Assembly (NCBI GenBank): GCA_964016885.1
Contig: OZ024740.1
Location: forward strand, 170,562,001 to 170,626,000
Direction: 5' to 3'
Origin: Eledone cirrhosa
Lineage: Eukaryota
DNA length: 64,000 bases
Below are positions 4,521-30,920 of the stretch, one piece after another (position 1 is the stretch's first letter; each line of letters begins with the position of its first letter). The translations under genes were made by a program, and so were the position numbers. Under the pieces are notes generated by a model. It was not told the DNA's origin. It saw only the letters and a program-made list of their open reading frames with translations, and made no database searches.

Positions 4521-7160
4521 TGACGTCCTGTTCGACGGTTGGTCCACCTCCCAATGCCAAACTTTGGTATTACTCCCTCCAGGATTTTCCACATGTAGTT
4601 CACTGCGTATCTCTCCCATCTTCATTCCAAGGAGTAGAGGTTCAGTTCCTTTAGCCTCTCCCAGTAGCTTATCTCCTTCATCGTGGCAATCTTCTTGGTG
4701 TAGCTTCGCTGGATTGCCTCAAGCTCCGTGGTTAGTGTGACACTATGGGGTGACCACAACTGGGAGCAGTAGTCCAGGCGGCTTAGGACAAATGTCCTCC
4801 ATAGTGTCAACATGGTATCTCGGTCTCTTGTCCGGAAAGTCCTCAAGATCCATCCAGCGAGTCGTCTGCACATTGTTGCCACTTTCATGATGTGTGAGGA
4901 AAAAGATGCATCATCGCTCATGTCTATGCCCAGGTCTCGTATCGATTTTGACACGGGGATATCGGTCCCTCCCGTTCCTGTATAGTTGTGTTGTAATATA
5001 TTTGTGTTTGCAGGTTTGTTTGGAGGTTTGTATTGTAGGGCTTGGAATTTGCCAGCATTAAACTGCATGTTGTTTTCTTCCGCCCATTATAATATGGCAT
5101 CCAGATCTTGTTGTAAAAAGGCAGCGTCAGCCGGGTTTTTGATTGGCTGTGCTACCTTAGTGTCATCAGCATAGCTAGTGAAGGATGTTGTTGCATGTAC
5201 TACAGAGGGCATGTCTGAGGGAGCCACCAAAAACAGTAGTGGTCCCAGGACTGTCCCCTGGGGCACCCCACTTGTTATTGGTGTTTCCTTCGAGAGGGCC
5301 CCATTTGCTGCGACTGTCTGGCTTCTGTCCTTTAGGAAGCCATGCAGCCACTCACCTACTTTTCCAGTTATGCCGAGTCCGTGTAGTTTGTGATATATCA
5401 TTCCGTGGTCGTCCTCGTCAAAGGCCTTTGCAAAGTCAAGATATATCACGTCCACATGTGAGCTGTCTAGTAGATGTTTCAGTACCCAGTCGTAGTGATG
5501 TAGTAGCTGTGTAAGGCAGCTTCTTCCTTGGTGGAAGCCATGTTGCGTGCTAGTCAGGCGGTCATTTTCCTTGAGGAAAGTGATCAGTTTCTTTCTGACG
5601 ACTCGCTCCATGACCTTACTGATATGCGACGTCAGGGAGACTGGCCTATAGTTTTTGGCCTCCGCTCTACTACCTCCTTTATGGATAGGGCATATTGTGC
5701 CGTCTTTCAGCTCCCTGAGTAGTACACCGCTAGCCAAGGAGCTTCTGAAGAGCATCTTCAGTGGAGTTGCTAAGGCCAGCTTACATGTTTTTAAGAGAAC
5801 TGCTGGGAATCCATCAGGTCCAGCAGCTGAGTCTGTTCTAATTTCATCTATGGCGTACACCACATCCTCCTCCGTTATGTCTATATGGTTGATGGTCGCC
5901 ATTTCTTCATGTAGTGTTGTGGCATCAAAGAACTCCCCTGGCTTCGTTATTTGCATGTGCCTCAATGGACATGTGAACACACTTTTGTACTCTTCGTTCA
6001 GTATTTCACATATCTCTTGGGGGTTTTCGGTTAATGAACCGTCCGTATGGAAGAGTGGCCCAATCTTAGAGTGTACCGAGGCAGTTTCTTTTGCAAATTT
6101 AAAGAAGGCCTTAGGGTTTGTTTTAATGTTTTCTATAGCCCTGTTCACTTTCTTTGCCCTCTCATTTTCAGGGGAAAGTTTGAGTGCAATCTCGGTGCCA
6201 TGTAGCGCACATTTCAAATAGGATTCCTTCTTGTTTTTGTTTTCTTGTTGACTATTCAACTGGTTTGAAAGCTTGGTTCTACGTCTCATAAGGATTTTCC
6301 TATCTCTGGGAATAAGATTTTTGTGTCTGTTTGCCTTTTTCTCCGGGACAAACTTTTTGCATATAGTGTGTATCGTTGTCATGAAGTGTTGAAATTGTGT
6401 GTTAGTGTCTTGTGTGGCGGTGTTTTCACTCCATGTTTGCTTCCGGATTTCTCTCTTAATCTTTTTCCAGTTAGCCTTGTAGAAGTTAATGCTGGATAAC
6501 GTCCCGGAGCTTCTTGGTGGTTTTGTCTCTGGTGGTTCTCTCGGACCACATCATTAGCTCTACTAAGTTATGATGCGAGAGAATTGTTGGTGTCACCTTT
6601 ACATTGTGGATGAGCACTTCGTTGTTTGTAAAACAGAGGTCCAGGACATTTTCGCCTCTTGTTGGGTGGAGTATTGCTTGCTCCATGAACAGCCTGTGTG
6701 TGAGGGCCAGCAGCGATTCCGTCTGTCTCTGTTCTATTGACGTCATTCCAGGGAGGAGGTGGCCCTCAGGCCATTTGACCTTTGGTAGGTTGAAGTCTCC
6801 CAGCAGTAGAATGTTGAGACCCTGGTCCAGTTTGTCAAGGACCTCTTCTATCCTACTTAGGCTATCCACAAATTTACCCTCATGACTGGGGGCATCGGGC
6901 GGCCGATATGTGACACATATTACTGTCTGTAGTTGCTTCATATGTACTATCAGTGTGTCACAGACTGAGTTTGAATGTGTCAACAGTACAATTGGTGTGA
7001 CATCTTCATGGATATACAGAGCAACCCCACCATGAGTTCTCTCCTTCCTGTCCGAACGAAATACAATATATTTCGTTATATGTATTTCTGCATCTGCTAT
7101 ACTGATTGTCAGGTGCGTTTCGGTTAGTGCCATGCATAATGCTTGATTGCTTTCCCAGGT
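4521..7160 (-). mobile_element. CR1-group LINE ORF2 relic (APE endonuclease + reverse transcriptase), disrupted
   Basis: ORFs 6486-7133 (LTETHL, GGVALYI, GDFNLP), 5087-6382 (GPDG, NYRPVSLTS, YLDFAKAFD, SGVPQGTVLGPLLF, YADDTK) and 4622-5068 (RDLGI, LDYCSQLWSP), split by frameshifts or stops. Confidence 0.9.
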
Positions 7161-7213
7161 AGGGAATTTAACTCATGTATATATATATATATTTTACTCA
7201 TATATATATATGT

Positions 7214-12179: not shown

Positions 12180-14282
12180 ATGGCTACGAAAAAGAAATTT
12201 CATACGTCACTCCCACTCATTCCGTCTTCTTCTTCCTCAATCATCACTACAGCAGAGAGAAGATTGTCTCTCTCCCTCCCTTCTTTAAATGTGTCTCTCT
12301 CCCTCCCTTCTCTTTCGCAAGTGACGAAAGAAAAGAAAAGTCTCGTGCAAAGCGTGCAAGGGTTCTCCACGACGACGACGACAGCGACGAAACAGGTGTG
12401 CGGGAAATACGAAAACCCAGTTCATTCGTCTGACGTCAGGAATAATAGCAGTAGCAGCCGTAATAACAACAGCAACAGTGACAATGAAAACAACAGTAGC
12501 AGCCGCAACAGCATCACCAGCAGCATAAACAACAACAGTATTAGCAGCAGCAACACCAACAAAAACCACAGCAACAGCGGCGGCGGCAGTAGTCGTAGTA
12601 CCTGCAGCAACAACAAAAGTACCAGCAGCTCTGACGACAACAACAACAATAGCAGCAAAGAAAAACCAATCTCATTTGCAAGCATTGCGAAAAACTTGGA
12701 AACAATCCTCATAACAAATGAGGAATTAGAGGAAGCGAAGAAGATGGTGACAAAGAATGGACACCGAGCAATCTGCAAGGCAGCGGAAAAATTTTTCGAA
12801 ACCCAACAGCACTGTACGGTCACGTACCGTACAGTAAGTACAAAATCCCGTAGGGTGGAAAGAGCCACAGAGGCTCAGATACAAAAAGCCTTGGGGTATG
12901 TGTGGCAGCGGAAAACGCACATCACCCGAGGCAAAAAATATGCCACCGTAGACGTACTTTTTGTCACACCCCAGGAGGCAAAGGCCCAATCAGTAGTGAC
13001 CCTAAGGAGCGAGGAAATGGTGTTGGTGCCCTCCTACTGCGGGCAAAAAATTGTGAGGGTCAAACTGACCCACGTCCCCCCCGGAATGGCCCCTTCTTGG
13101 CTGGCCGCGTCTGTCCTCGTCGGAATCGAGGACAAAACAACTGTACTGCAAGTACAGAAAAAAGTAAGAGAAGATTGGGTCGGCACCTCCATTGAGATGC
13201 TAATCCAAACCAACCAGGAGTGCATCGAAGCTATCCCGGATGTGATAGACTTCGATAACGGCACTCAACTGCCCATAAGTGTTGAGGGCAAACGCCCGAA
13301 ATGCTTTCGCTGTGGATCGAAGACTCACCTCAGGGCCTTCTGCAACGAGAAGACCCTGAGAAAGGAGAAAACCCACCTCCTTCCGAATCCGGCTCCACGG
13401 CTACCAGCAACAGGACAAGCGGCAACCAGGAACGATAGGTCCGTGGCACCCATACCCACTCCACGGAAATCAAAAACAGCAGCAGCAGTGGAAATATTAA
13501 CAACAACAACAGCAATACCAAATGCAGCTGCAACAGAGACTCCAGTGCAAACATCACCAACAACAACAAGTGAAAGAGTGGAGCTGGTACCTCTCCCCGA
13601 CCTCACAGAATCAGACATGGAGTGTGAGGTGGGAGAGGGATGGCAAAAGGTCGTAAGAAGGCACAAACGCAGAAGCAGCGCATCGTCGCCTTTGAAAAGG
13701 GAGGAAAGAAATGAGAAAAGGGTAAAGTCTACTGCAAAGAGACCCACAGCAGCAACACCACCAACACCATCACCACCCACACTAGCACCACCATCACCAC
13801 CGGCGACAACCCCACCGCCAACAACACCTTCAACACCACCACCACAAGCACCAGCATCGCAAACACAACAACAAAACACACACACCCAGCAACAACGACA
13901 AGAAAATAGCAGAACCACACCCCACCCCCAGAAAAACAAATGCACGGCAATGAATACACACAACAAGAAACTAATGACTTACATAATTGAACACACAGAC
14001 ATTTCACAACAGGACTACATAATACCAGCACCAATCAAAACGCCAACTAACATAAGACTGCTAAAAATAGCACAGAAACAATACACAAACATTAAAACGA
14101 AATTCCCCAACGCAGTTGGTGATTTCAGGGACCTAGGAGGAACCATCAATCGAAGAGAATATTCAGACATTCTCTTAGAAGAGCCGACGACCAGCCGAAG
14201 GGACGATTCAACGGTCCCTTCACCAGACGATCAAGTGAAAAGGGATGTAAAAACCATCCCTCCTCTACCAAAAGTACGGTAA
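12180..14282 (+). CDS. Tx1 ORF1 (gag-like nucleic-acid-binding protein), 700 aa
   Basis: N/S-rich N-terminus, probable RRM-like region, CCHC knuckle CFRCGSKTHLRAFC, Pro/Thr-rich linker, conserved C-terminal domain. Confidence 0.88.
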   Translation: MATKKKFHTSLPLIPSSSSSIITTAERRLSLSLPSLNVSLSLPSLSQVTKEKKSLVQSVQGFSTTTTTATKQVCGKYENPVHSSDVRNNSSSSRNNNSNSDNENNSSSRNSITSSINNNSISSSNTNKNHSNSGGGSSRSTCSNNKSTSSSDDNNNNSSKEKPISFASIAKNLETILITNEELEEAKKMVTKNGHRAICKAAEKFFETQQHCTVTYRTVSTKSRRVERATEAQIQKALGYVWQRKTHITRGKKYATVDVLFVTPQEAKAQSVVTLRSEEMVLVPSYCGQKIVRVKLTHVPPGMAPSWLAASVLVGIEDKTTVLQVQKKVREDWVGTSIEMLIQTNQECIEAIPDVIDFDNGTQLPISVEGKRPKCFRCGSKTHLRAFCNEKTLRKEKTHLLPNPAPRLPATGQAATRNDRSVAPIPTPRKSKTAAAVEILTTTTAIPNAAATETPVQTSPTTTSERVELVPLPDLTESDMECEVGEGWQKVVRRHKRRSSASSPLKREERNEKRVKSTAKRPTAATPPTPSPPTLAPPSPPATTPPPTTPSTPPPQAPASQTQQQNTHTQQQRQENSRTTPHPQKNKCTAMNTHNKKLMTYIIEHTDISQQDYIIPAPIKTPTNIRLLKIAQKQYTNIKTKFPNAVGDFRDLGGTINRREYSDILLEEPTTSRRDDSTVPSPDDQVKRDVKTIPPLPKVR

Positions 14283-14318
14283 GTGGTCTTTCCCATCTTT
14301 TTCCACTCTATTTTAAAC

Positions 14319-17300
14319 ATGACCTCACTCAGAATAGGCAGCATAAATGCGCGTGGCTTGGGGTCGTCATGGAAGCAGGGTCACCTGCTCAACGACCTCA
14401 GGTCACTAAACATAGATGTAGTGGCCATCAGCGCGACCAGAATCTCCGAAGCACGGGCCTTCGCACCGATCTTCGGCGGCTACGATGTGTACGCATCTCC
14501 CAGCCGTCCTGGATCGGGTGGAGGAGTTGCTGTGCTTTTTCGGAGAGGTTTGGATCTCGCCATACGGGCCATCTTCCTGGACCCAGAGGGTAAGCTGGTG
14601 GTGCTGGACGTGACCAGCGGAGACGGGCAAGCTTTCAGGCTAGTGGCCGTCTATGCCCCGACAGGAGCAGGGCGGCCTGATTTCTTCCGGCGTCTGGAGA
14701 GCTTTCTTGGAACGTCCCGCTCTTTAGTGTTAGTGGGCGACTGGAACGGGATCTTAGATGCACGCTGGGACTGTGTGGGATTAGCGGATAGGGGTGGAGG
14801 GTGCAAGAGCCTCACCAACCTGCTCAGGCGTTTTGAACTGTCTGACAGGTGCCGATTGGATTTCCCGAATGCGCCAATGTGGACTTGGACAAATCGCATA
14901 AGGTCTTCCAGATCATATCTAGATAGAGTATTTTGTAGGGAAATAGATAGGTCTAGCATAGGCTGTCCACAATTCAAGATAGTCAGCTACACGGACCACA
15001 AATTAATCGTAATCTGTGTGCTTGACTTAGATAGGCTTCATAGACGAGGACCCGGCTACTGGAAGCTAAACGCGTCCTTACCAGCGCGCAAGGCCTACAG
15101 AGACCGGATTAGCGAACTAGTTAAGCGGGCGTTGACGGGGGCGATCGTCAACAACAAGTGGTGGTTTGCTCTGAAAAGAGCGATTAGAATAGAATCGATT
15201 AGGTTTAGTAAGGCTTTAGCAATAGAGAAAAATAGAGCAGAGGGAGAACTAGTTAGAAAATTAGACGAGGCGCTTAGCAAAGGCATTGCGACCGACGTGC
15301 TTGCGGCGAAATTGGCCCTTGACCAATTCTTCAATGCAAAGCACGAAGGCTGCGTTGTCAGAGCTAGGGTGCGTGCTCTCAGACACGAGGGGACGAAAGC
15401 CGTTCAATTAGCCCGAGTGGCGGAGGCGCGTCGTGGCAACAAAGCCACGATCCGGTCTTTGGTGGACCACGACGGGCGCATGCTACTCGATCCCGGGCAA
15501 ATGTGTGAAGCTTTTCAGCGACACTTCGCTCAGCTGTTCGGGGGCAGCGGTGGGCCGGGTAGAGGCATGGATTTTAGTGTCTACCTCGACGGACTGCCGC
15601 GGCTCTCGGCCACTGAGGCGAAGTGTTGCGAAAAGCCGATAACAGCCGCTGAAGTAAGGGAGGCAATGACTTGCTGCACAAGGGGTAAATCGCCTGGTTT
15701 GGATGGTCTGCCCTATGAACTTTACGTACAGATGCCAGACTTGTTCGGAGGCCTCTTGGCGGACGTCTACTGCAACTGGCAACAGAACGGGAGAATTCCC
15801 AGTTCTGTGAGCCGAGGAGCGGTGGCACTGCTGAGAAAGGATCCGAACAAGGGGGATAACATAGATAATTTCCGGCCCATAACTCTGCTAAACACAGAGT
15901 TCAAGATTTTGGCCAAGGTGCTAGCAAAGAGGTTGGCGCTTGTCGTTGGTGGTCTGGTGTGAGAGGCGCAGACATGCGCCATTCCCGACAGATCCATCCA
16001 CGACAACCTCCACCTCATGCGATACATCATAGAGAGGGTAGCTAAGGAACCTGGCACGGGTGGGTCCTTGATCAATTTAGATCAGTCGAAAGCTTTCGAT
16101 AGGGTCGACCATCGTTACCTAGCGGCAGTCCTGAGGGCAGCTGGCTTTGGGCCCGTCTTCAGAGGCTGGATCGCTACCATGCACAGCGACATCTGCTCTG
16201 TGGTGAGAGTGAACGGTCACCTGTCGGAACCGTTCAACATCATGCGCTCGGTCCGCCAAGGATGTCCCCTCTCTTCCCTCTTGTACGTATTGACTCTCGA
16301 GCCATTACTGCACAAACTGGAGACGTTGAGGGGAGTCCCGCGCGAACTATGATGCGGAAGATCAGTGTCAGCATATGTGGACGATGTCACCGTAGTGGTG
16401 TCGAGCGCCAAACACATCGAGGCGATCGGCACTACACTAAGAGAATACGAAGCGGTGACAGGAGCAATGATCAACCAGGAAAAGTCAATGGGCCTGCAGC
16501 TCGGCACCTGGAGAGGCAGGTCCATGCCGTCCAACAGCGTCGTCGGACGCTGGACGGAGGGACCGGTTAAATTGCTAGGGGTCTGGTTCGGTCCGGACCT
16601 CCAGACGGACAAAAACTGGGACGAGGTGACCAGCAGGGTGGCTTCTCTCACCCAGAAATGGGCCGAGAGGAAGCTATCCCTGAAAGGTCGAGCCGAGGTG
16701 GCGAATGCGTACATCGTATCCGTCATCTACTACCGCCTGACCGTCGTACCTTGTCCTAAGCCCCGCCTGACTGCGCTGGAGCGTTTGCTCTTTCGCTTCT
16801 TGTGGAAGGGACGCGCTCCGATGGTCAGGCGGTCCATCTGCTGTCAACACCCGCTACGTGAAGGGCTGGGCATGCCGTGGCTGATGATGCGCAGACACGC
16901 GCTCAGGCTACGACATCTCCACCTCTTCCTCGACGGTGATCAGGTGTGGTCACCGTTTGCAAGACACGTTTTTCCCCAGCTCGTCTCCTTGACGGAGCTG
17001 CAGTCCTGGGTCAAGCGAAGACCGAGAGGGAGCGCTTGGAGACTGGAATGTCTTCAGGCGCTCACAGCCCTCGACCAATCGGGCAATGTGATCGGTGGAA
17101 ACTCCACCTTGGCGTTCTATAGGGGATTAGTGGAGGGGAAGAGCGACGATGTACTTGGAGAAACTCTAGGCGTCGACGAAAATCAACTAGCCAATCTCTT
17201 CGGAAGGACTTTCGGGCCGGGGCCTATGGACAACTTCCAGAAATCCCTGGCCTGGCAGTGCTACCGAGGAGCTTTGCCAGTTCGGGATAAACTCTACAGG

Positions 17301-17741
17301 CATGGAGGTGCCGTCAGCCGGGCATGTCCGAGATGCGCGCAGGGCGACGAAACCGTCCTGCACGCACTCGTCCAGTGTCCGAGCATTGCTGACTTGTGGG
17401 TTTATGTCGAACACCTGCTGTCACGTGTAGGACGGATCCAGCTATCAGCTGAGTCCATCGTGAGGATTGCCCCGCCCCCTTCCTTTAGCCTGGAAGGGCA
17501 GGCAGTTTTTATCTGTCTGGTGGCCATGGCGAAAGAGATAGTATGGTGGACACGTTTGAAAGGGCTGAAGACAAGCACTTACCTCTTCGGTGATGCCCTG
17601 ATTAACTTTTTCAAATTTCATTTGAAAAGGAAAATCAGGGTAGAGAGGGAAGTGCTCTCTTCCCAGCATTTTGTTGAAAGATGGGTGAGAGAAGCAAGTA
17701 TGGCCCGAATGAATGGGCTTTCTCTGAGTATGTGTCTGTAA
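14319..17741 (+). pseudogene. Tx1 ORF2 (APE EN-RT-zinc finger) with two in-frame TGA stops
   Basis: Single frame with TGA at 15960-15962 and 16350-16352. Motifs GDWN, TDH, KSPGLDGLP, DQSKAFDRV, RQGCPLS, YVDD, CPRC..H...C. Confidence 0.9.
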
Positions 17742-18223
17742 ATTAAAGGTGGAAAACTGGGAGAGGGCACTTGCCCTGGTGGTCAGGGCCACTGTGGTCT
17801 TTTAATGGGCTTTCTCCACAAATGTCCCTCCGAAGTCTCCCCCCTATTGGGGAATTTTTCATTGTTATTTTATTTCAACCTCTGTTTTTTTTTACACGCA
17901 GAAATGCCCATTTTTACCGTCCTGTATTGTCCTGTACTGTCCTTAATGTCTACTTTATGTGAACCCTTGTGGTTAATAAAGAAAACATTATTATTATTAT
18001 TATTATTATTGACGAAAGTGGATGTACGTTTTTTGAAGCTCCGTGAGTAAGCAATTTTTTGAGGATTAATTGTAGAGAATTGTTTATTTTTTGTACCGCT
18101 GAAGCATTATAAGACATTAATTTGTATCCTGTGAAGGAATAACTCATAATATTTGGGCCTTTTGGCCCAAATATTTGAACTTTATTTTGAAAAAAAAAAT
18201 AATAATTTTTTTCTCAAAAAAAC

Positions 18224-20134
18224 ATGGCGGAGCCACGCCCCCTAGAGGCGGGTCTGCTGTCGTGCAACGGCGACTTGAGCGTTGAGAGGAGAGGTGAGGC
18301 GAGGAGCGCCACCAGCACGAATGTGAGCAGCGACAGTGCCAGCACCAACGGGCCGAGCGGCGCGGAAGGTGGTAACAGCGACAACACCAACACCAACAAG
18401 CCGAACAGCGCAGAAGGTGGTAATAGCGAGAGCACCAACAAAACGAACAGCACAGAGAGTAATAGTAGCGACAGCAACAGCACCAACAAGGCCAACAGCA
18501 CAGAGGGTAACCACGACACAGGGGAGAACAACAACAGCAATAGCAGCAGCAACACCAACAAGAACAACAACAGTGACAACACCAACAAGAACACCTTCGC
18601 TGCTGTGGCAGCGGCTAAAAGGAGACCATGCTACAGCATCGACTTAACCAACAGAGAGGAAAAGTTGGCCCAGGCCTGGAAAATCATAAATCAAGAGCAG
18701 ACCTGGGCAAACTTAACTGTCCCGGCAGAAGCCATTGAGGCAGTGGAAAAAAGAACGGTGCATTTCAGATGCATCTCAGTAGAGACAAAGAGGGCAGCGA
18801 TAATCGCCCAAGCTGATATAGAAGCCGCACTGAAATACATCAGAGAGGACACAGACTTCATAGAGAGGGGCAGGCAATACGGCACCGTTTCGGTGCTGTT
18901 CAAGTCTGAAGCCCTCGCTGTGAAGCATTCAATGACCCCTTGCAAAACCAGCAAGGTTATAATGTACCCCTCCCACATGGGAAAACGAATAGCACGTGTG
19001 CGCATTCCCAGGATTCCACCAGGACTTGATATGTGGTGGCTCCTGGGTTGCGTAATCGTGGAAGGAACAGATACAGTCCCGGTAGAGGCAACGAGAACTG
19101 CCAGGGACGACTGGTCCGGGGTTGATCTGGAGATACTGCTCCAAATCAGACCCGAAAACGTAAAAGCAATCCCGGACCACATCCGCCTCCAAAACGGGAG
19201 GGTGTTGCATATAATGACCGAGGGCAAAAGGCCGCATTGTTTCCTTTGTGGGGAAACGACACACTTGCGAGCCTTCTGCCCTCAACTGCCGAAAAGCGCA
19301 AGGGGTCGAAAGATTCCACTGCTGGCGACGCCGGGACAAGGACCACCAGCAACACCGTCAACAATGGAACCACCAAAATTGCACACCCAGGGGGGAAACG
19401 AGGAAAGCTCTCCCATTCCCCCTCCCCCCCAAAATACACACACGAACAAGAACATAAACACTCACTCAGACACAAACACGCTCACAGCCACAGACCCCTC
19501 ATCCTCCAGCAGTGAAGATGAGGGAAAACCAAAGTCCCCCAAAATACAAAAAACAAAACACAAAAAAAAAAGAAATCCACAAAGCACAAACACCCCCACA
19601 AAAAAAAATACACACACCACCCACACAAACATTTTCCCCACAGCATCACCAACACAACCACCAAAATCCCCCAAACGCAAACAAGCTAAACAGACACAAG
19701 AACAAATAGACACACAAACATCAGAAACTACAGACACCCCACCCACAACAAACGCAGACACAATAGAAACAACACTAACAAAGCTATCACCACCACAATC
19801 ACACGAACAAATAAAACCCGAGCAACAAAACATTAAAAACTTCGTGCTTGCCAGAAGGGCCAACAAGGAATTGATGGCCCATGTAGCACGAAGCACAAAC
19901 ATCGAAAAAGACGGGGAAACATTTGAAGCGAGCACATTTCGCGTACCAGATAATTTGCTTCTGATGCGAATGTCGCTCGCTTCATACAAAGAAATTCGAA
20001 AGAGCTTTCCTCGGGATGTGGGAACCCCGAACGTAAAACCCACGTCAAGACTATTAAAGGGGTTCCCAAAAGAAACCCCACAAACCATGGAGGTCGAACC
20101 ACCCGACCTTCACAAGACCCCGGAAGGTAAGTAA
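18224..20134 (+). CDS. Tx1 ORF1, 636 aa
   Basis: N/S/T-rich repeats, CCHC knuckle CFLCGETTHLRAFC, Lys/Pro/Thr-rich linker, C-terminal domain homologous to A and C. Confidence 0.88.
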   Translation: MAEPRPLEAGLLSCNGDLSVERRGEARSATSTNVSSDSASTNGPSGAEGGNSDNTNTNKPNSAEGGNSESTNKTNSTESNSSDSNSTNKANSTEGNHDTGENNNSNSSSNTNKNNNSDNTNKNTFAAVAAAKRRPCYSIDLTNREEKLAQAWKIINQEQTWANLTVPAEAIEAVEKRTVHFRCISVETKRAAIIAQADIEAALKYIREDTDFIERGRQYGTVSVLFKSEALAVKHSMTPCKTSKVIMYPSHMGKRIARVRIPRIPPGLDMWWLLGCVIVEGTDTVPVEATRTARDDWSGVDLEILLQIRPENVKAIPDHIRLQNGRVLHIMTEGKRPHCFLCGETTHLRAFCPQLPKSARGRKIPLLATPGQGPPATPSTMEPPKLHTQGGNEESSPIPPPPQNTHTNKNINTHSDTNTLTATDPSSSSSEDEGKPKSPKIQKTKHKKKRNPQSTNTPTKKNTHTTHTNIFPTASPTQPPKSPKRKQAKQTQEQIDTQTSETTDTPPTTNADTIETTLTKLSPPQSHEQIKPEQQNIKNFVLARRANKELMAHVARSTNIEKDGETFEASTFRVPDNLLLMRMSLASYKEIRKSFPRDVGTPNVKPTSRLLKGFPKETPQTMEVEPPDLHKTPEGK

Positions 20135-20163
20135 ACCTTTCCTCTCCCATTCATCCTGCCAGC

Positions 20164-23100
20164 ATGGCCATAAGAGTAGGAAGTTTAAATGTTCGTGGCC
20201 TGGGGTCGCCCTGGAAGCAAGGTCACTTGCTCAACGACCTCAGGTCACTAGGAATGGATGTAATTGCCATCAGCGAGACCAGAATTTCCGACACACGCGC
20301 ACTGGCGCCGATTTTCGACGATTATCAGATCTTTGCATCTGTTAGTCGGCCGGGAATGGGAGGTGGAGTGGCTGTGCTGTTTAGGAAATGTCTGGATCTC
20401 GAGGTAAGGTCAATCTTCCGGGATCCTGACGGAAAGTTGGTGGTCCTGGACGTGAGCAATAGCGAAGGTGGTGCCTTTAGACTGGTGGCCGTCTACGCCC
20501 CTACTGGGGCCGGTCGGCCGGACTTCTTTAGGCGCCTGGAAAACTTTCTGCTTACGTCTCGCCCTTTACTGTTAATAGGGGATTGGAATGGCATCTTAGA
20601 AGCACGCTGGGATTGTGTGGGAGTATCTGATAGGAGCGGGGGGTGCAAAAGCCTCAAGTACCTGATCAGCCAGTTTCAACTGTCTGACAGGTACCGACTA
20701 GATTTCCCTAATGCGCCAGTATGGACCTGGACCAATCGCATAGGGTCATCTAGATCGTACATAGATAGGATTTTCATTAGGAAAAGAGATAGAAATAGTG
20801 TAGGATGTCCACATTTTAAAACGGTTGCCTATTCAGATCACAAGCTTGTGATCTGTATGGTCGACCTAGATAAGACACGTAGGTTAGGACCTAGCTACTG
20901 GAAGCTAAACATGTCGTTTCCGGCACGTAAAGCTTACAGGGACCGGGTCAACAACTTAGTTAAGCAAAAGTTGACAGGGGGGGTTGTCAACAACAGGTGG
21001 TGGGGGGCACTCAAAAGAGAGATTAGAGCAACCTCGATAGGATTTAGCAAAGAAGTAGCAATAGAGAAAAATAGAAAGGAGGAGGGGCTGATAGCTAAGT
21101 TAGACGAGGCTATTTGTAGTGGCATTGCAACAGACGTGCTAGCGGCGAGAATGGCACTAGACCATTTCTTCAATGCGAAACACGAAGGTTGCATTGTCAG
21201 AGCTAAGGCGCGTGCTCTGGGGAACGAGGGAACCAAAGCTGCCCGATGGGCTCGCTTTGCAGAGACGCAGCGTGGAAATAAAACCACAATTCGGTCTTTG
21301 ACGGATCGAGATGGACACGAACTGAGCGATTCCAAGCAGATGTGTGAGGCCTTTCGCCAGCACTTTGCTCGATTGTTCGGGAGGATGGGTGAGTCGGAGA
21401 CGGCGGCGGACTTCAGTCCCTACCTCGACGGCTTGCCACGCCTCTCGACGGCCGACGCTGAGCGCTGCGAAGAGCCGATAACATCAGTCGAAATTCAGGA
21501 CGCCCTTGTCGGCTGCTCGAGTCGCAAGTCACCCGGTTTGGATGGTCTGCCCTACGAGCTTTACGTAAATATGCCAGACTTGTTCTCCGATCTCCTCGAA
21601 GCGCTCTACTGCAACTGGCAGCAGAACGGGAGCATTCCCAGTTCTGTGAGCCGTGGCGTAGTGACGCTGATAAGGAAAGACGAGAACAAGAGGGACACAC
21701 TAGATAATTTCAGGCCCATAACCCTGCTCAACACAGAGTTTAAGATTTTGGCCAAGGTGTTAGCGAAAAGGTTGGCGCTTGTCGTCAAAGATTTGGTTGG
21801 GGAGGCGCAAACTTGCTCAATCCCGACCAGGTCCATACACGACAACCTCCACCTCATGCGATACATCATAGAGAGGGTTGGGTGCAAACCTGGCTTCGGT
21901 GGGGCTCTGATCAATTTAGATCAATCGAAAGCATTCGATAGGGTCGACCATCGGTACTTGGAGGCTGTCCTCGAGGCGGCTGGCTTCGGCCCCGTCTTCA
22001 GAAGCTGGATCGCTGCAATGTACAGCGGCATCTGCTCGGTGGTCAAAGTTAATGGCCACCTCTCGGAACCGTTTCAGATCTCTCGATCGGTCTGTCAAGG
22101 GTGCCCTCTATCCTCACTTCTGTACGTATTGACTCTTGAGCCTCTACTGCGGAAGCTGGAGTTGTTGCAGGGCATCCCGCTCGAACCGGGACGTAGAAAG
22201 GCTGCGTCCGCTTATGCGGACGACATCACCGTGATGGTGTCGGACACCTCGGAAATCGAGGTGATCCGCACCCATTTGGAGGAATATGAAAGGTTGACGG
22301 GAGCAAAACTTAACCCGGAAAAGTCGGTGGGCTTGCAGCTCGGCACCTGGAGAGGCAAGTCCATGCCGTCCAACAGCGTCGTTGGGCGCTGGACAGACGG
22401 ACCGGTAAAGTTGCTCGGGGTTTGGTTCGGACCAGACCTCCAGGTGGATAAGAATTGGGACGAGGTGACGAGCAGGATAGCCAACCTCACCCAGAAATGG
22501 GCTGAGAGAAAGCTATCACTGAAAGGGCGGGCGAAGGTGGCGAACGCGTACATCGCGTCCGTCATCTACTACCGCCTGACCGTCGTGCCTTGCCCCCGTC
22601 CACGCCTCGCCAATTTGGAACGGCTCCTTTTCAAATTTTTGTGGAGGGGACGGGTCCCGTTGGTGAGGCGGTCCATCTGCTGCCAGCACCCTCTTCGTGG
22701 AGGGCTGGGCATGCCGTGGCTAATGATGCGCAGACATGCGCTGAGGCTGCGACATCTCCAGATATTTTGCCTAAACGGTGAACAGGTGTGGTCGCCGTTT
22801 GTTAGACGGGCCTTTCCGCAGCTCATCTCTTTGACTGAGCTGCAGTCCTGGGTCAAGAAGAGACCGAGACTGGGCGACTGGCATCTGGAATGTTGCCAGG
22901 CGCTCACTGCACTCTGCAAGGTGGGCAATGCGGTCAGTGGAACTTCCACTCAAGATTTCTATAGAGGATTAGTGGAGGGCAAGTGCGATGACGTACTAGG
23001 AGAGGCTCTGGGCGTCAACGAAGTAGAACTGACCAGTATGTTCCGGAGGACTTTCGAGCCGGGGACGATGGATAACTTCCAGAAATCCCTCGCTTGGCAG

Positions 23101-23583
23101 TGCTACCGGGGGGCGCTGCCGGTTCGGGATAAACTCTACAGGCACGGAAGTGCTGTCAGACGAACCTGCCCGAGATGCGCGCAGAGCGACGAAACCGTTC
23201 TGCACGCACTCGTCCAGTGTCCGTGCATTGCTGACTTGTGGGGTTATGTCGAACAGCTATTGTCGCGTGTAGAACGGATCCGGCTATCGTCCGAGTCCAT
23301 AGTGAAGATTGACCCGCCGCCTTCTTTTGGTCAGGAAGGGCAGGCAATTTTCCTCTGCCTGGTGGCAGTAGCGAAAGAGGTTGGATGGTGGACCAGGTTG
23401 AAAGGACTGAAGACAGACACTTTTCTCTTCGGCCAATCCCTCATCAACTTCTTCAAGTTTCACTTGGAAAGGAAGGTGAGGGTGGAGAGAGAAGTGCTGC
23501 CCCCCAGTACATTTACTGAAAGGTGGGTGAATGTGGCGAGAATGGCCCGCGTGAGTGGGCCTACTCTGATCATGCGCCTGTAG
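20164..23583 (+). CDS. Tx1 ORF2: APE endonuclease, reverse transcriptase, C-terminal zinc finger, 1139 aa
   Basis: SLNVRG, ISETR, IGDWN, YIDRIF, SDH; NFRPITLLN, DQSKAFDRV, QGCPLS, YADD; CPRCAQSDETVLHALVQC. Confidence 0.95.
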   Translation: MAIRVGSLNVRGLGSPWKQGHLLNDLRSLGMDVIAISETRISDTRALAPIFDDYQIFASVSRPGMGGGVAVLFRKCLDLEVRSIFRDPDGKLVVLDVSNSEGGAFRLVAVYAPTGAGRPDFFRRLENFLLTSRPLLLIGDWNGILEARWDCVGVSDRSGGCKSLKYLISQFQLSDRYRLDFPNAPVWTWTNRIGSSRSYIDRIFIRKRDRNSVGCPHFKTVAYSDHKLVICMVDLDKTRRLGPSYWKLNMSFPARKAYRDRVNNLVKQKLTGGVVNNRWWGALKREIRATSIGFSKEVAIEKNRKEEGLIAKLDEAICSGIATDVLAARMALDHFFNAKHEGCIVRAKARALGNEGTKAARWARFAETQRGNKTTIRSLTDRDGHELSDSKQMCEAFRQHFARLFGRMGESETAADFSPYLDGLPRLSTADAERCEEPITSVEIQDALVGCSSRKSPGLDGLPYELYVNMPDLFSDLLEALYCNWQQNGSIPSSVSRGVVTLIRKDENKRDTLDNFRPITLLNTEFKILAKVLAKRLALVVKDLVGEAQTCSIPTRSIHDNLHLMRYIIERVGCKPGFGGALINLDQSKAFDRVDHRYLEAVLEAAGFGPVFRSWIAAMYSGICSVVKVNGHLSEPFQISRSVCQGCPLSSLLYVLTLEPLLRKLELLQGIPLEPGRRKAASAYADDITVMVSDTSEIEVIRTHLEEYERLTGAKLNPEKSVGLQLGTWRGKSMPSNSVVGRWTDGPVKLLGVWFGPDLQVDKNWDEVTSRIANLTQKWAERKLSLKGRAKVANAYIASVIYYRLTVVPCPRPRLANLERLLFKFLWRGRVPLVRRSICCQHPLRGGLGMPWLMMRRHALRLRHLQIFCLNGEQVWSPFVRRAFPQLISLTELQSWVKKRPRLGDWHLECCQALTALCKVGNAVSGTSTQDFYRGLVEGKCDDVLGEALGVNEVELTSMFRRTFEPGTMDNFQKSLAWQCYRGALPVRDKLYRHGSAVRRTCPRCAQSDETVLHALVQCPCIADLWGYVEQLLSRVERIRLSSESIVKIDPPPSFGQEGQAIFLCLVAVAKEVGWWTRLKGLKTDTFLFGQSLINFFKFHLERKVRVEREVLPPSTFTERWVNVARMARVSGPTLIMRL

Positions 23584-24081
23584 GCTGGTGAATTCGAGAA
23601 GGAGAGGGGTGCCCTTCCCGGGTGCCCTAGGAGCGTCGGGTGGCTCAGGACTGGTGGGGTGCTTGAGTCAACCCTGGGTGGTGATCCCTCTTATTGGGGA
23701 ACTTTCATTGTTGTATTTTTATTGTTATTTTGTTTTTTTTGTTATTTATACTTACTCGATCTCTATGTAAACCCCCACTGTCCCTGTCTATTGTGTTGTC
23801 CCCTATATGTCGGCCCTTGTGGCCAATAAATGAAATCATTATTATTATTATTATTATTGTTGTTGTTGTTGGTGAAGCCACGCTTCTTATCGCCTCCAAT
23901 TTTTTTCAAAGTTTTACCTCTTTTTCAACCGTTCTAAATCTTTTATTCAAGTTTTAAATTTGATAAAGGTTTAGAAGAAGTGACCCACCTAATGCAGAGG
24001 TTCACTAGTAAATAATACGGCACCCCTTTATAGGGTGTCGTATTCGTATTTGTGTAAAAATATTTTTTGAAAAATTTCAAC

Positions 24082-26240
24082 ATGGATAACACAAGAAAGA
24101 GAAAGAGCGCTGTCCGACAACATAGAGAGAGGGAGACTTTATCAGCATGTCAACAAGACAGCGTTCCAGCGGAGGTAAATATAAACGAAAATATTACAAA
24201 GGAAAAAAAGATTGTTACAGATTTAAAATTAACAAATATTTCTAACACAAACAACACCAACAATAACACCAACAACAACACCAACAACAACACCAACAAC
24301 AACAGCAACAACAAAAATAACAGCGGTATGGTCGAGAACGTCAATAACAAAAATAACAGCGGTAAGGTCGAGAACGACAATAACAAAAATAACAGCGGTA
24401 AGGTCGAGAACGACAATAACAAAAATAACAGCGGTAAGGTCGAGAACGACAATAACAAAAATAATCAGGCGGTAAGGTCGCGAACGACAATAACAATGAC
24501 AATAACAACAGCCACAACAACAATAATAGTAGGAACAGTATCAACAAAAACAACAATAATAACAACAGCCACAATAACAGTAACAACAGCAACAGTATCA
24601 ACGAAAACAACAACAACAACACCAACAACTGTACCAGCCAAAACAACAACAATGACACCGATACCTGTAATAGCGACCTCAGCACCACCAGTAAGACCAG
24701 TAGCGGCAGCAGTATTGGTGCTGCTGAAAAAGGGACCCTTTCTTTTGCAGGTGTCGCCCGAAATATCGAGACAGTCTTAGTCACAGAGGAGGAGATGGCA
24801 GTCGCAAGGGCCATGGTGACAGGAAGCTCAAATAGAGTTTCCCTGAAACCTCCACCCGATTTTTTCAAGAACTAGCAGCTATGGACGGTGACTTACCGCA
24901 CCGTAAGCAAAATCTCACATCGAGTGGAGAGAGCCACGGAGGCTAAAATCCAAAAGGCCTTGGGGTGCGTCTGGGTACGCAAAACCCACATCACTCGAGG
25001 CAGAAAGTACGCCACAGTAGACGTACTTTTCGCCACCCTCCAGGAAGCAAAGTCTCACTCTTTGGAAACCCTAAAGAGTGAGGAGATAGTCTTGGTGTCC
25101 TCCTACTGCGGGCAAAACATTGTGAGGGTCAAAGTGACCCAGGTCCCACCCGACGTGCCCATACCTTGGCTGGCCGCGTCTGTCCTTGCTGGAATTGAGA
25201 ACAGGGCGACCATGCTGCAAGTAGAAAAAATAGGGAGAGAGTACTGGTCGGGTATAGGCATACAAATGCTTATACAAACTGACCAGGAATGTATCGAGGC
25301 TATCCCCGATATCATAGACATCGAGGAAGGACTCCAACTCCCTATAAGTGTAGAAGGAAGACGGCCAAAATGTTATCTCTGTGGGTCGAAGGGTCACCTC
25401 AGGGCCTTTTGCCCACAGAAGAGAGCGAAGAGGGCCCTTCTCCTTCCAATACCTGGTCCGCTGCTACCAAGAGCAGGACAGGCAATAAACGAAGAAGCCC
25501 TTCCACGGTGAGTAGGAGGGCAACGTCCGTAGCACCCGTACCAAGGCCACGGACAACTAAAGCAGCATCATCAGTAGCGGCAACACCAATAGCTACATTT
25601 GAAGTAGCTACACCAGCAACAAAATTGCCAAGAGGGATCCACTACCACCACCAACAGGCGTGGAGCACATACCCCTCCCAGACGCCACAGAATCCTACAT
25701 GGAGTTTGAGGCGGGAGTGAAGTGGAAAACGGTCTGCCACAAAAAACAAAAAAACAAAAAAAACCTTAGATTCACCCTCCAAAAGCGAAGGCATACAAAG
25801 AGGGGTAAAGGCAGCAAGGAAACTTGCAGCAACACCACCACCATCACCACCACAAACACCAACAACGCAAACAAAACAAGACACACACACCAAACAGCAG
25901 CAAGAAAAAAAACAACAACAAAATCACCCCTCCCCCAAAAAAGTACACAGCCATAAACATGGCAAAAAAAGAACTCATAAAATATATAAAGCAGCACACA
26001 GACATCACAGGAAAAAACTACTACACCCCACCAACACCAAGAACTCTCCCGACAAACATAAGCATCATCGAAATCTCAATAGAACAGTACAAACCTTTAA
26101 AACAAAAATTCCCCAACGCAGTTGGAGACTTCAGAGGGACGGTTACCAAGAGGATATACACTGAGATCCTCTTGGAAACACCCATGACCTGCGAAAGGGA
26201 CAGTTCTACTGTCCCTTCACCACACGAACAAGGTAAGTGA
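24082..26240 (+). pseudogene. Tx1 ORF1 of element C, frameshifted
   Basis: Fragments 24888-25511 (CYLCGSKGHLRAFC knuckle) and 25824-26240 align with ORF1 of A. Confidence 0.85.
24340..24482 (+). repeat. 36-bp tandem repeat (about 4 copies) in ORF1 of C
   Basis: aataacaaaaataacagcggtaaggtcgagaacgac unit, encoding NNKNNSGKVEND. Confidence 0.9.
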
Positions 26241-26272
26241 CCCTTTCTCATTTGCCCCGTTTCTCATCCAAC

Positions 26273-29200
26273 ATGTCCGTACTCTGAAGAGTCAGTATAA
26301 ATGCACGTGGCCTGGGGTCATCTTGGAAGCAGGGTCACCTGCTCAACGACGTCAGGTCACTAAACATAGATGTGGTGGCCATCAGTGAAACCAGAACCTC
26401 CGAAGCACAAGCCTTCGCACCGATCTTCGGCGGCTACGATGTATACGCATCTCCGAGCCGTCCAGGATCGGGAGGAGGGGTTGCCGTCCTTTTTCGGAGA
26501 AGCTTGGATCTCGCGATACGGGCCATCTTCCTAGACCCAGAAGGTAAGTCGGTGGTGCTGGACGTGACCGGCAGCGAAGGCAATGCTTTCAGGTGAGTAG
26601 CCGTCTACTCCCCAACAGGGGCAGAACGGCCAGATTTCTTCAGACGGCTAGAGACCTTTCTTGGAACGTCCCGCCCTTTAGTATTAGTGGGCGACTGGAA
26701 CGGTATCTTGGATGCACGCTGGGATTGTGTGGGGTTAGTGGATAGGGGAGGAGGGTGCAAGAGCCTCACCAACCTGCTCAGACGTTTTGAACTGTCTGAC
26801 AGGTATCGACTGGATCACCCGAATATGCCAATGTGGACATAGACAAACCGCACCGGGTCATCCAGATCGTGTCTCGATAGGGTATTCTGCAGAGAACTAG
26901 ATAAGGCTAGTATAAGTTGTCCACAATTTAAAATAGTCGACTACACAGACCACAAATTTGTCATCTGTGAGATCGACATAGACAGACTTCATAGACAAGG
27001 GCCCGGTTACTGGAAGCTGAACGCGTCTTTCCCGGCGCGCAAAGCCTACAGAGAGCGGATTAGCGTATTAGTTAAGCGGGCGTTGACGGAAGCGGTCGTC
27101 AACAACAGGTGGTGGTTCGCCCTGAAAAGGGCAATTAAAGTAGAGTCGATTAGGTTTAGCAAAGGAGTAGTGATAGAGGAAATAGAGTAGAAGGAGAGCT
27201 AGTCAGAAAGCTAGAAGAGGCGTTTAAGACAGGCACCGCAACTGACGTGCTTGCGGCGAGATTGGCACTCGACCAATTCTTCAACGCAAAGCACGAAGGC
27301 TGCGTTGTCAGAGCTAGAGCGCGTGCTCTGAAACACGAGGGCACAAAAGCCGTCCAATGGGCCCGGGTGGCAGAGGCGCGACTGGCAACAAGTCCACAAT
27401 TCAGTCTTTGTCTGACCAAAACGGGTGCGTGTTGCTCGAACCCAAGCAGATGTGAAGCTTTTCAGCAGCACTTTGTTCGGGAGCAGCGGCGGCCCGGATC
27501 AGGCATGGAATTCAGTGCATGCCTCAACGGTCTGCCTCGGTTCTCGACGACCGCAGCACAGTGTTGCGAAAAGCCAATAACAGCCGGTGAAATACGGGAA
27601 GCGATGGCTAACTGCACGAGGGGTAAATCGCCAGGTTCGGAATGTCTGCCCTACGAGCTTTATGCATTTATGCCAGACTTGTTCGGTGACCTCTTGGCAG
27701 ACGTCTACTGCAACTGGCAGCAGAACGGGAGCATTCCCAGTTTTGTGAGCCGGGGAGCGGTGGCGCTGCTGAGAAAAGAGCCGAACAAGGGGGGCGTTAT
27801 CGATAATTTCAGGTCCATAACCCTGCTAAACGCAGAATTCAAGATTTTGGCCAAGGTGTTAGCAACTGGGTTGGCGCTTGTTGTCAAGGGTCTGGTGGGA
27901 GAGGCGCAGACATGCGCCATTCCGGACAGTTCCATACACGACAACCTCCACCTAATGCGATACATCATAGAGAGGGTGGTTAAGGAACCTGGCACGGGTG
28001 GGGCCCTGATCAACTTGGCGGCGGTCCTCGAGGCAACCGGTTTCGGGCCCCTTGTCAGGGGTTGGATCGCTGCCATGCACAGCGACATCTGCTCTGTGGT
28101 GAGAGTGAACGGTCACCTTTCTGAACCGTTCAACATCATGCGCTCGGTCCGCCAAGAATGGCCCCTCTCGCCCCTCTTGTACGTATGGCTCTCGAGCAAT
28201 TACTGCACAAACTGGAGACGTTGAGGGAGTCCCGCGCGAACTAGGATGCGGAAGTCCGTATCAGCATATGCGGACGATGTCACCGTAGTGGTGTCGAACG
28301 CCAAACACATCGAGGCGATCAGCACTACACTAAGAGAATACGAAGCGGTGACAGGAGCAATGATCAACCAGGAAAAGTCAGTGGGCCTGCAGCTCGGCAC
28401 CTCCAGAGGCAGGTCCATCCCGTCCAACAGCGTCGTCAGGCGCTGGACGGACGGACCGGTTAAATTGCTAGGGGTCTGGTTCGGTTCGAACCTCCAGACG
28501 GACAAAAACTGGGACGAGGTGACGAGCAGGGTGGCTTCTCTCACCCAGAAATGGGCGGAGAGGAAGCTGTCCCTGGAAGCTCGAGCGGAGGTGGCTAACG
28601 CGTACATCGCGTCCGTCATCTACTACCGCCTGACCGTCGTACCTTGTCCTAATCCCCGCCTGACTGCGCTGGGGCGTTTGCTCTTTCACTTTTTTGTGGA
28701 AGGGACGCGCTCCGATGGTCAGGCGGTCCATCTGCTGTCAACACCCGCTACGTGGAGGGCTGGGCATGCCGTGGCTGATGATGCGCAGACACGCGCTCAG
28801 GCTACGACATCTCCACCTCTTCCTCGACGGTGATCAGGTGTGGTCGCCGTTTTCTAGACGCGTCTTTCCCCAGCTCGTCTCCTTGACGGAGTTGCAGTCC
28901 TGAATCAAGCGAAGATCAAGAGGGTACGCTTGGAGACTGGGATGTCTTCAGGCGCTCACAGCCCTCGACCAATCGGGCAATGTGATCGGTGGAAACTCCA
29001 CCTTGGCGTTCTATAGAGGATTAGTGGAGGGGAAGAGCGACGACGTACTTGGAGAAGCTCTAGGCGTCGACGAAAATCAACTAGCCAATCTCTTCGGAAG
29101 AACATTCGGGCCGAGCCTATGGATAACTTCCAGAAATCCCTGGCCTGGCAGTGCTACCGAGGAGCTTTGCCAGTTCGGGATAACCTCTACAGGCATGGAG

Positions 29201-29634
29201 GTGCCGTCAGCCGGGCATGTCCGAGATGCGCGCAGGGCGACGAAACCGTCCTGCACGCACTCGTCCAGTGTCCGAGCATTGCTGACATGTGGGTTTATGT
29301 CGAACACCTGTTGTCACGTGTAGGACGGATCCAGCTATCAGCTGAGTCCATCGTGAGGATTGCCCCGCCCTCTTCCTTTAGCCGGAAATGGCAGGCAGTT
29401 TTATCTGTCTGGTGGCCATGGCGAAAGAGATAGTATGGTGGACACGTTTGAAAGGGCTGAAGACGAGCACTTACCTCTTCGGTGATGCCCTGATTAACTT
29501 TTTTCAAATTTCATTTGAAAAGGAAAATCAGGGTAGAGAGGGAAGTGCTCTCTTCCCAGCATTTTGATGAAAGATGGGTGAGAGAAGCAACTATGTCCCG
29601 AGTGAATGGGTCTACTCTGAGTATGTGTCTGTAA
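26273..29634 (+). pseudogene. Tx1 ORF2 of element C, multiple stops and frameshifts
   Basis: Fragments align with ORF2 of A (ISETR, YADD, CPRC). Confidence 0.9.
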
Positions 29635-29922
29635 ATTAAAGGTGGAAAACTGGGAGAGGGCACTTGCCCTGGTGGTCAGGGTCACTGTGGCCTTTTAATG
29701 GGCTTTCTCCACAAATGTCCCTCGGTAGTCACCCCCTATTGGGGAATTTTTCATTGTTATTTTTTTGTTACATCCTCTGTTTTTTGTTTTTTCTTACACG
29801 CAGAAATGCCCATTTGTACCGTCCTGTATTGTCCTGTACTGTCCTTAATGTATACTTTATGTAGACCCTTGTGGTTAATAAAGAAAGCATTATTATTATT
29901 ATTATTATTATTACTATTATTA

Positions 29923-30164: not shown

Positions 30165-30400
30165 GGGGGTGATGGAGTGGCAGTATCGGTAGAGCGTCGG
30201 AAAATATGCTTTGTGGGATAGAGTTATGTCCCTTTACGTTGTGATTTTAAATCCCGCCGAGGTTAGCTTTGCCTTTCATCCTTTCGTGGTCGATAAAATT
30301 AAGTACCAGTAATGCATAGGAGTCGATTTGATTGACTTTCCCCTCCCTTTCAAATTGCTGGCCTTGTACCTAAATTAGAAACAATTTTTTTATGATTATT
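30165..30400 (+). mobile_element. Second tandem SINE family 1 copy
   Basis: Same head, core and tail; begins right after the previous ATT tail. Confidence 0.85.
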
Positions 30401-30404
30401 CGTT

Positions 30405-30920
30405 GTTGAACTGTTTTTTGTGAGCTCCGTCAGTTGGTTAATTTTCAAGTTTTTTGCAGTCAATTAATTTTGTATTTTTTTTTTTAACAAAGGGGTCATA
30501 AGAAACCAGTCTTTGCCCTGTGTAAAGGTGACCCCATATTATTTGGACTATGGACCCAAAAAGTAGAACTTTATTTTATTTGAAAATTTCTTTTCTTCAA
30601 AAAACATGGACATGGTCGCCCCCAGCATTGAGCCTACTGTCACGTGACAGCAGGCACAAACGTTGAGATGAGGGGTACCCCCCCCACCCTAATCACCGTT
30701 ATGAACAATGTAAAAATGACAACCACAACATGCAACGTTACCGACAACAACACCATCAACGAAATTAGCAACACCACCACCAACAATAACAATGTGAATA
30801 ATATCAGCATTAACGGCAACAACAAGAACATCACAAATAAAAATAAACAACTATTGATATACGTAAGAGGCAGAGTGTTCATAGTAGTACTAAGGAGCAG
30901 GAACGAAGTAACAATATAAC
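30405..30920 (+). mobile_element. 5' fragment of a fourth Tx1 element (D), related to B
   Basis: 5'UTR blocks gagctccgt and cccaaa..gaactttatttt..tcaaaaaacATGG match 18011-18227, followed by an AAC-rich ORF1 start. Confidence 0.7.

Follow-up and report, generated by a model that had tools for sequence, protein, structure and literature searches.

A U1-type 5' splice-site motif conserved at the end of ORF1 in L1-like retrotransposons of Eledone cirrhosa, and ORF2 as a candidate intron

In a stretch of 64,000 nucleotides (nt) from Eledone cirrhosa (GenBank assembly GCA_964016885.1, contig OZ024740.1, positions 170,562,001 to 170,626,000 of the forward strand; hereafter the window, to which plain positions refer), three retrotransposons without long terminal repeats (LTRs), here called A, B and C, lie head-to-tail between 12,000 and 29,900 and measure about 5.85 kb each. 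The end of their first open reading frame (ORF1) carries a selected 5' splice-site motif of the kind that pairs with U1 small nuclear RNA (snRNA), and this motif is real and family-wide. Tentatively, we favor the reading that this donor is spliced to an acceptor at the stop codon of ORF2, with ORF2 as one intron that is either retained or spliced and with an ORF1-only messenger RNA (mRNA), in the manner of the Drosophila element copia. An initial annotation of this DNA had proposed a micro-intron that fuses ORF1 to ORF2 and had mentioned an ORF2-skipping RNA as in copia as an alternative; it is the latter that may fit best, now with a concrete acceptor at the ORF2 stop.

The GGTAAGT sites that had been noticed over the three ORF1 stops are correctly placed, with motif starts at 14278, 20126, and 26232 and the GT at 14279, 20127, and 26233, all on the plus strand. 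ORF1 of element A (12180..14282; 700 amino acids (aa), with a CX2CX4HX4C knuckle) ends in ...KVR*, and its stop TAA lies within the motif; the donor (14276..14284, ACG|GTAAGT) stands in phase 2, matches U1 at 7 of 9 positions and is followed by a pyrimidine tract. In B, the intact ORF1 (18224..20134; 636 aa) closes with ...PEGK*, a Gly-Lys-stop end that spans the donor (20124..20132, AAG|GTAAGT; 8 of 9) in phase 1, and the decayed ORF1 of C (24082..26240, ending in ...EQGK*) spans its donor (26230..26238, AAG|GTAAGT) in the same phase. Two further GGTAAGT sites occur on the plus strand of the window, at 26543 and 37177. Among the 290 GT of element B the donor is the sole site scoring at least 8, and of 11 representative elements, with about 290 GT each, 8 have the donor as their sole 8/9 match to U1 or as one of the joint best.

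The conservation of the motif beyond the three copies, which the initial annotation had put forward for testing, extends across the family. Donors were defined as GT sites matching at least 7 of 9 positions of the complement of the host U1 5' end, taken from the U1 snRNA genes in the same genome, and 87 genomic sites were chosen by an ORF2 pattern blind to the donor: 85 of these carry such a donor 20–90 nt upstream, vs. 121 of 3,306 control windows (3.7%). Full-length loci held 113 elements. In 83 of them the ORF2 stop could be located and the donor scored at least 6; after removal of chimeras and of copies with large deletions or a misplaced stop, about 65 of the 83 were sorted into 16 lineages. 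The donor consensus is AG|GTARGT, in which -2A, -1G, +1G, +2T, +3A, and +5G are invariant in all 16 lineages and +6T is kept in 15, while +4 is A or G and the flanking bases vary freely; by comparison, only 15% of 156 four-fold degenerate ORF2 sites are invariant. The motif is read as Arg-stop in ten lineages, as Gly-Lys-stop (phase 1) in four or five and as Glu-Val-Ser (phase 0) in two, and its retention in phases 2, 1, and 0 was confirmed in copies with more than 600 open ORF1 codons. Because the donor is invariant across three ORF1 reading frames, the constraint acts on nucleotides and not on codons, and a C-terminal Gly-Lys coding constraint, named in the initial annotation as a possible refutation, does not explain it. 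The donor is missing at the ORF1-ORF2 junction of six unrelated L1-like elements from metagenomes, as judged by eye among 10 loci; the metagenome matches are 23–44% identical and served as an outgroup only. The U1 snRNA genes themselves are repeated in tandem about every 2,674 bases, at G000:C2:180,973,000-180,995,000 and on C1128.

A motif in this place, together with the pyrimidine-rich spacer behind it, could also serve the translation of ORF2 by termination-reinitiation, or bind another RNA-binding factor, its match to U1 being a coincidence. Wherever ORF2 has an ATG, the donor does lie 25–52 nt ahead of it, the ORF1 stop falls inside the motif in 10 of 16 lineages, and SART1 is known to reinitiate, the same having been proposed for L1 (PMC5972666). 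Yet in the phase 0 and phase 1 lineages the stop shifts while the motif stays put, the conserved span from -2 to +6 is exactly the span of U1 pairing, and the six metagenome junctions do without the motif, which leaves this explanation improbable. By analogy with SART1 and L1, the ORF2 protein (ORF2p) itself is most likely made by reinitiation. In lineage cl4 (L136, L150, L159, L160), 12 of 12 sampled copies have no ORF2 ATG, and ORF2 starts with an ATA that overlaps the TAG of ORF1, which fits reinitiation; two of the copies retain an open ORF2 of 1,140 codons, making cl4 a candidate for natural non-AUG reinitiation. Translation of L1 ORF2 is reportedly AUG-independent.

On the acceptor side, sites were scored with a generic splice matrix. 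ORF2 of B (20164..23583, plus strand; 1,139 aa, intact, with its own ATG and APE endonuclease, reverse transcriptase (RT) and zf-RVT domains) ends in a candidate acceptor (23560..23591, CCTGTAG|GC) that ranks 7 of 265 AG sites, and the candidate intron, made up of spacer and ORF2, would occupy 20127-23583 (3,457 nt). The same context, a pyrimidine tract, CTRTAG and then usually G, surrounds the ORF2 stop in 15 of 16 lineages, where the AG ranks 1–7 of about 260 in cl1, cl2, E, cl3c, cl5, cl4, and B, mostly 4–24 in cl3b, cl3a, B2, B3, D, and C2, and 1–43 over all copies scored. As the donor sits at or just before the ORF1 stop, splicing would take out that stop. A new stop in the frame of the donor follows the ORF2-stop AG within three codons in 12 of 15 lineages (in B the TGA at 23589-23591), vs. 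7 of 30 cells for the other frames (Fisher p 0.0004; label shuffle p 0.003), and arbitrary AGs have an early donor-frame stop at a rate of 15.7%. The matching frame tracks the tree: stops in the clade whose donors are mostly in phase 1 belong to phase 1 and differ in codon and position, and the mostly phase 2 clade has mostly an immediate phase 2 stop.

Lineage A has lost the AG at the ORF2 stop. In the window its ORF2 (14319..17741, plus strand, with its own ATG at 14319 and with internal stops that break this copy) ends in TAA, and the top-scoring AG of the element lies 160 nt downstream in the 3' untranslated region (UTR), at 17880..17901, where a T tract is followed by ACACGCAG|; from this candidate replacement acceptor a donor-frame stop is reached at 17960-17962. 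The sister lineage C has CAC at this place, and the copies divide into 21 with TAA and GCAG, 11 with TAG and GCAC and one with TAA and GCAC, which amounts to a single contrast between A and C. The idea of a 3' UTR acceptor conserved in every lineage was rejected, since A alone has one, and a candidate acceptor at 18,955 was rejected as well, its 20 variant copies being ordinary substitutions or single-base deletions. An AG just ahead of the ORF2 ATG is found only in B, B2, and a few others. In B and B2 it is strong and acceptor-like (rank 1–2; window 20,140-20,162; L032, L036, L047) and could serve an ORF2-only RNA; most lineages are without it.

From these features we infer the splicing, the choice of AG and a purpose. 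ORF2 as a whole would be a single intron of 3.4–3.5 kb, and the spliced form would be a short mRNA of ORF1 and 3' UTR with a stop codon rebuilt right after the junction; in lineage A the 3' UTR acceptor would replace the lost ORF2-stop AG. A stop within the last exon avoids junction-triggered decay, and the spliced mRNA would yield excess ORF1 protein (ORF1p), encode no RT and escape nonsense-mediated decay, while the unspliced RNA would be the genome and would give ORF2p from its own ATG by termination-reinitiation. In a more specific form, which we hold a little more loosely, ORF2 would be a regulated spliceosomal intron between two stop codons, the retention of which chooses between an ORF1-only mRNA and a mobile full-length RNA; the 3' UTR would supply the rebuilt ORF1 stop, which would co-evolve with the donor frame. 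The excess of ORF1p over ORF2p is usually ascribed to inefficient reinitiation, as is the escape from decay of a bicistronic RNA in which a further 3.5 kb follow ORF1. An mRNA spliced specially for ORF1 would, if true, mean that a non-LTR element had convergently arrived at a solution like that of copia, and it would place a family with more than 11,000 ORF2 starts (11,369 matches to a degenerate ORF2-start pattern in the 3.0 Gb genome) under host splicing control; were ORF2 a regulated intron, host splicing would be an on/off switch for thousands of elements. The splice prediction is exact to the base, from 20126 to 23584 in B and from 14278 to 17902 in A.

Several observations weigh against this reading. 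The C-type acceptor at the ORF2 stop is weak (rank 21–43), and in D, cl3b, and cl3c the in-frame stop comes late, at 27, 41, and 34 codons, respectively; D as a recombinant was considered and found unsupported. Kinship among the lineages inflates both p values, and the independent support comes from about two deep clades plus turnover. Conservation of the TAG is by itself unremarkable, as 47% of two-fold sites match it, and the pyrimidine tract is partly explained by a conserved hydrophobic C-terminal strand. The RNA evidence consists of assembled contigs of unlabelled runs, one of which (X4) is probably RNA, judging from its uneven depth. Here single contigs span both sites of B unspliced (20083-20658 and 23520-23825), and there is no donor-acceptor junction contig, the sole listed joint lying elsewhere. 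An abundant junction should, on our understanding of the assembler, break such spanning contigs, and abundant splicing is unlikely in the X4 sample, although rare forms are lost from contigs. The contig depths in X4 are 20 for the 5' half of ORF1, 191–197 for its 3' half, 6–24 for ORF2 and 348 for the 3' end; a reading of this pattern as ORF2 skipping was dropped, as contig depth cannot rank parts and the 5' half of ORF1 is also low. The high-depth part is centered on an internal A run at about 19,560, which oligo-dT could capture.

Retrocopies of the spliced form point in the same direction, as none without ORF2 was found in the eight lineages searched: 0 of 340 copies for B, none among about 4,040 for A, 0 of 302 for cl1, and none among 11, 1, 22, 3, and 18 variant matches for cl3, cl4, C, B2, and cl5, respectively, for which total copies were not counted. 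For A, 30 of 46 variant matches were read over their full length, and not one of the 46 opens with the expected A. An ORF1-only RNA consequently needs either a strict cis preference or rare splicing. In the DNA runs X1 and X2, B-specific contigs have a similar depth (about 1,800–2,200) from ORF1 to the 3' end (window 18,200-23,830), which suggests that B copies are mostly full-length, unusual for a long interspersed element (LINE).

The unspliced contigs and the absent retrocopies would be accounted for by a different role of the motif, namely that it recruits the U1 ribonucleoprotein without productive splicing and thus favors full-length RNA, either by blocking cryptic polyadenylation in the A-rich ORF1 or in early ORF2 or by shielding the intron-less RNA from termination and silencing. 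This possibility, which the initial annotation had raised as protection from premature polyadenylation, stands as the main rival, although we consider it rather unlikely. It also accounts for a strong donor with a weaker acceptor; 12 of 16 lineages have AATAAA or ATTAAA hexamers 240–560 nt ahead of the donor, and U1 suppresses premature termination in Arabidopsis EVD (PMC5580714). The hexamers, however, are expected by chance in an A-rich ORF1, have no single conserved place and are missing altogether from cl3a, and in a study of HUSH, splice sites flanking stuffer DNA gave no protection (PMC8770142). U1 recruitment explains the donor while leaving the frame-matched stops past the ORF2 stop and the gain of an AG in lineage A unexplained. 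Protection by U1 is compatible with ORF1-only splicing, and both may coexist; even if U1 binding alone holds, a retrotransposon that selects a U1 site would be unusual.

The frame-matched stops bear on yet another possibility, that of a real donor whose partner lies elsewhere, for instance at an AG within ORF2, in the following tandem copy or in a host exon; the RNAs would then be attenuated or chimeric, comparable to those of mammalian L1. In several lineages the score of the stop AG is equalled by some internal AGs, tandem arrays are common, and human L1 employs many splice sites (PMC5860796, PMC2896524). The stops, on the other hand, indicate the ORF2 stop as the partner, and selection for a self-damaging site over 16 lineages is hard to explain; we give this possibility little credence.

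The micro-intron first proposed, of 39–63 nt and joining ORF1 in frame to ORF2, is largely refuted and by now very improbable, although the AG positions, intron lengths (54, 53, and 59 nt in A, B, and C) and frames given for it are all correct. In its favor, lineages of phases 1 and 2 do have an in-frame AG 12–16 nt into ORF2, which derives from conserved Leu/Ile-Arg-Val/Ile-Gly codons, and introns of about this length are not out of the question in animals (PMC13644364). These AGs, however, score negative with the same matrix and rank 38–234 of about 265, and the ATG of ORF2 itself (14319, 20164, and 26273) lies within the proposed intron. This ATG, with Kozak flanks, is kept in 15 of 16 lineages, and distant ORF2 homologues also begin with Met directly ahead of the first strand; removal of the micro-intron would delete this conserved start, mostly of the CCAACATGG type. 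In cl4, with its phase 0 donor, no in-frame AG exists (frames read by hand). As the RT favors the mRNA that encodes it (PMC5860796), a fusion RNA should seed intron-less copies, and these would be expected to dominate. The genome search suggested at the outset found no such copies in A, B, cl1, or cl3, nor any among more than 4,600 copies overall: 0 of 340 in B, 0 beside 302 in cl1, none in cl3, and in A not one of 46 variant matches that starts with the expected base (30 of the 46 being read fully), alongside 3,993 intact copies. Readthrough of the ORF1 stop was also considered and rejected, as the in-frame spacing in the A of the window is specific to that copy.

The proposed splicing of ORF2 as a single intron has its closest counterpart in Drosophila copia, where the entire POL is spliced out to leave a GAG-only RNA (PMC5580714, citing Yoshioka 1990). 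In copia the structural protein comes from a spliced RNA whose intron spans the whole enzyme-coding region (PMC5580714), as is predicted here. Of the copia-type features, a conserved donor that closes the structural gene is observed, and a stop just past the junction is predicted in 12 of 15 lineages. Copia is a Ty1/copia LTR element, whereas here a non-LTR LINE has two separate ORFs, with the donor at the stop of ORF1 and the candidate acceptor at that of ORF2. The short-GAG RNAs of Arabidopsis EVD and barley BARE1 likewise depend on a conserved U1-type donor where the structural gene ends and have a stop formed just after the junction (PMC5580714), but arise from single-ORF LTR elements by a short intron and premature polyadenylation, in contrast to the 3.4–3.5 kb candidate intron and the normal 3' end kept here. 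Mammalian L1, with its SpIREs and SpORF2, is an L1-group LINE with a bicistronic RNA, like the present elements, and its splice sites are functional where ours are predicted; its donors lie mainly in the 5' UTR, and ORF2 remains in the products, whose effect on retrotransposition is described as harmful (PMC5860796, PMC2896524), unlike a donor that closes ORF1 and looks selected. The microsatellite-targeting LINEs of the Tx1 clade (Kibi, Koshi, and crocodilian Tx1) share the two ORFs, an ORF2 with APE, RT, and zinc finger, and copies in simple repeats (PMC4494074), but not the (ATT)n or (TATC)n tails and flanks; the likeness is one of features. No splicing of these three is described in the accessible text of PMC4494074, and that of a paper on octopus repeats lists active L1-Tx1 families with splicing unmentioned (PMC13282606). 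Full-text searches, the scope of which left aside subscription journals, Repbase entries and supplements, found no LINE with ORF2 as one intron in the text accessible to them. The predicted copia-like expression strategy is probably new to LINEs.

As judged from sequence features, A, B, and C are Tx1/L1-like LINEs with a candidate placement in the Tx1 clade. Each has an ORF1, an ORF2 with APE endonuclease, RT and zf-RVT domains, AATAAA, and an (ATT)n tail. ORF2 matches PF03372, PF00078, and PF13966 above cut-off and, at the level of sequence and weakly, L1 endonuclease structures; the CX2CX4HX4C knuckle of ORF1 is readable in A and B, with a weak Pfam match (E 0.2). A self-BLAST found no terminal repeats and hence no LTRs, 3' ends consist of AATAAA followed by (ATT)n or (TATC)n tails, and with this non-LTR anatomy and an ORF2 without an integrase domain the elements fall outside Ty1/copia. 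The 3' end of A (17975..18010, AATAAA and (ATT)n) adjoins the 5' end of B, and that of B (23825..23870, likewise) the 5' end of C; the copies sit within (ATT)n and in head-to-tail arrays, and tail and target are indistinguishable. Element C (24,050-29,900) is a chimera of two lineages, with a C-type 5' part and an A-type 3' part that meet at about 27,900-28,000: its decayed ORF2 (26273..29634, plus strand) is C-type to about 27,900 and A-type beyond, and for this reason its 3' end is not the proper partner of its donor. L154 resembles a similar chimera. Family B is very young: each of its 150 best genomic matches is 100% identical in the first 100 residues of ORF2, and its ORF1 end is common to 340 genomic copies.

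A query for distant homologues returned only B copies, a broader pattern gave no further family in the five loci checked, and a search of viral contigs gave no match. Head-to-tail arrays like that of the window occur elsewhere in the genome with a period of about 5,840 bases, including a run of ten B copies (G000:C1:423,365,000-423,418,000), and different lineages are also stacked one behind another. In the first 100 of its 302 places, cl1 is concentrated toward the ends of the two largest contigs (G000:C1, 0.5–31 and 431–434 Mb; C2, 3–21 and 395–414 Mb). The 3' ends of L157-L190 are (ATT)n in one clade and mostly (TATC)n in the other, which suggests a switch of microsatellite target. Within the window, a fourth element starts at about 30,400-30,900 with a B-like 5' UTR, an ATG at about 30,607 and an Asn-rich stretch and then breaks off, and a different LINE with RT and endonuclease domains lies on the minus strand at 5,087-7,172.

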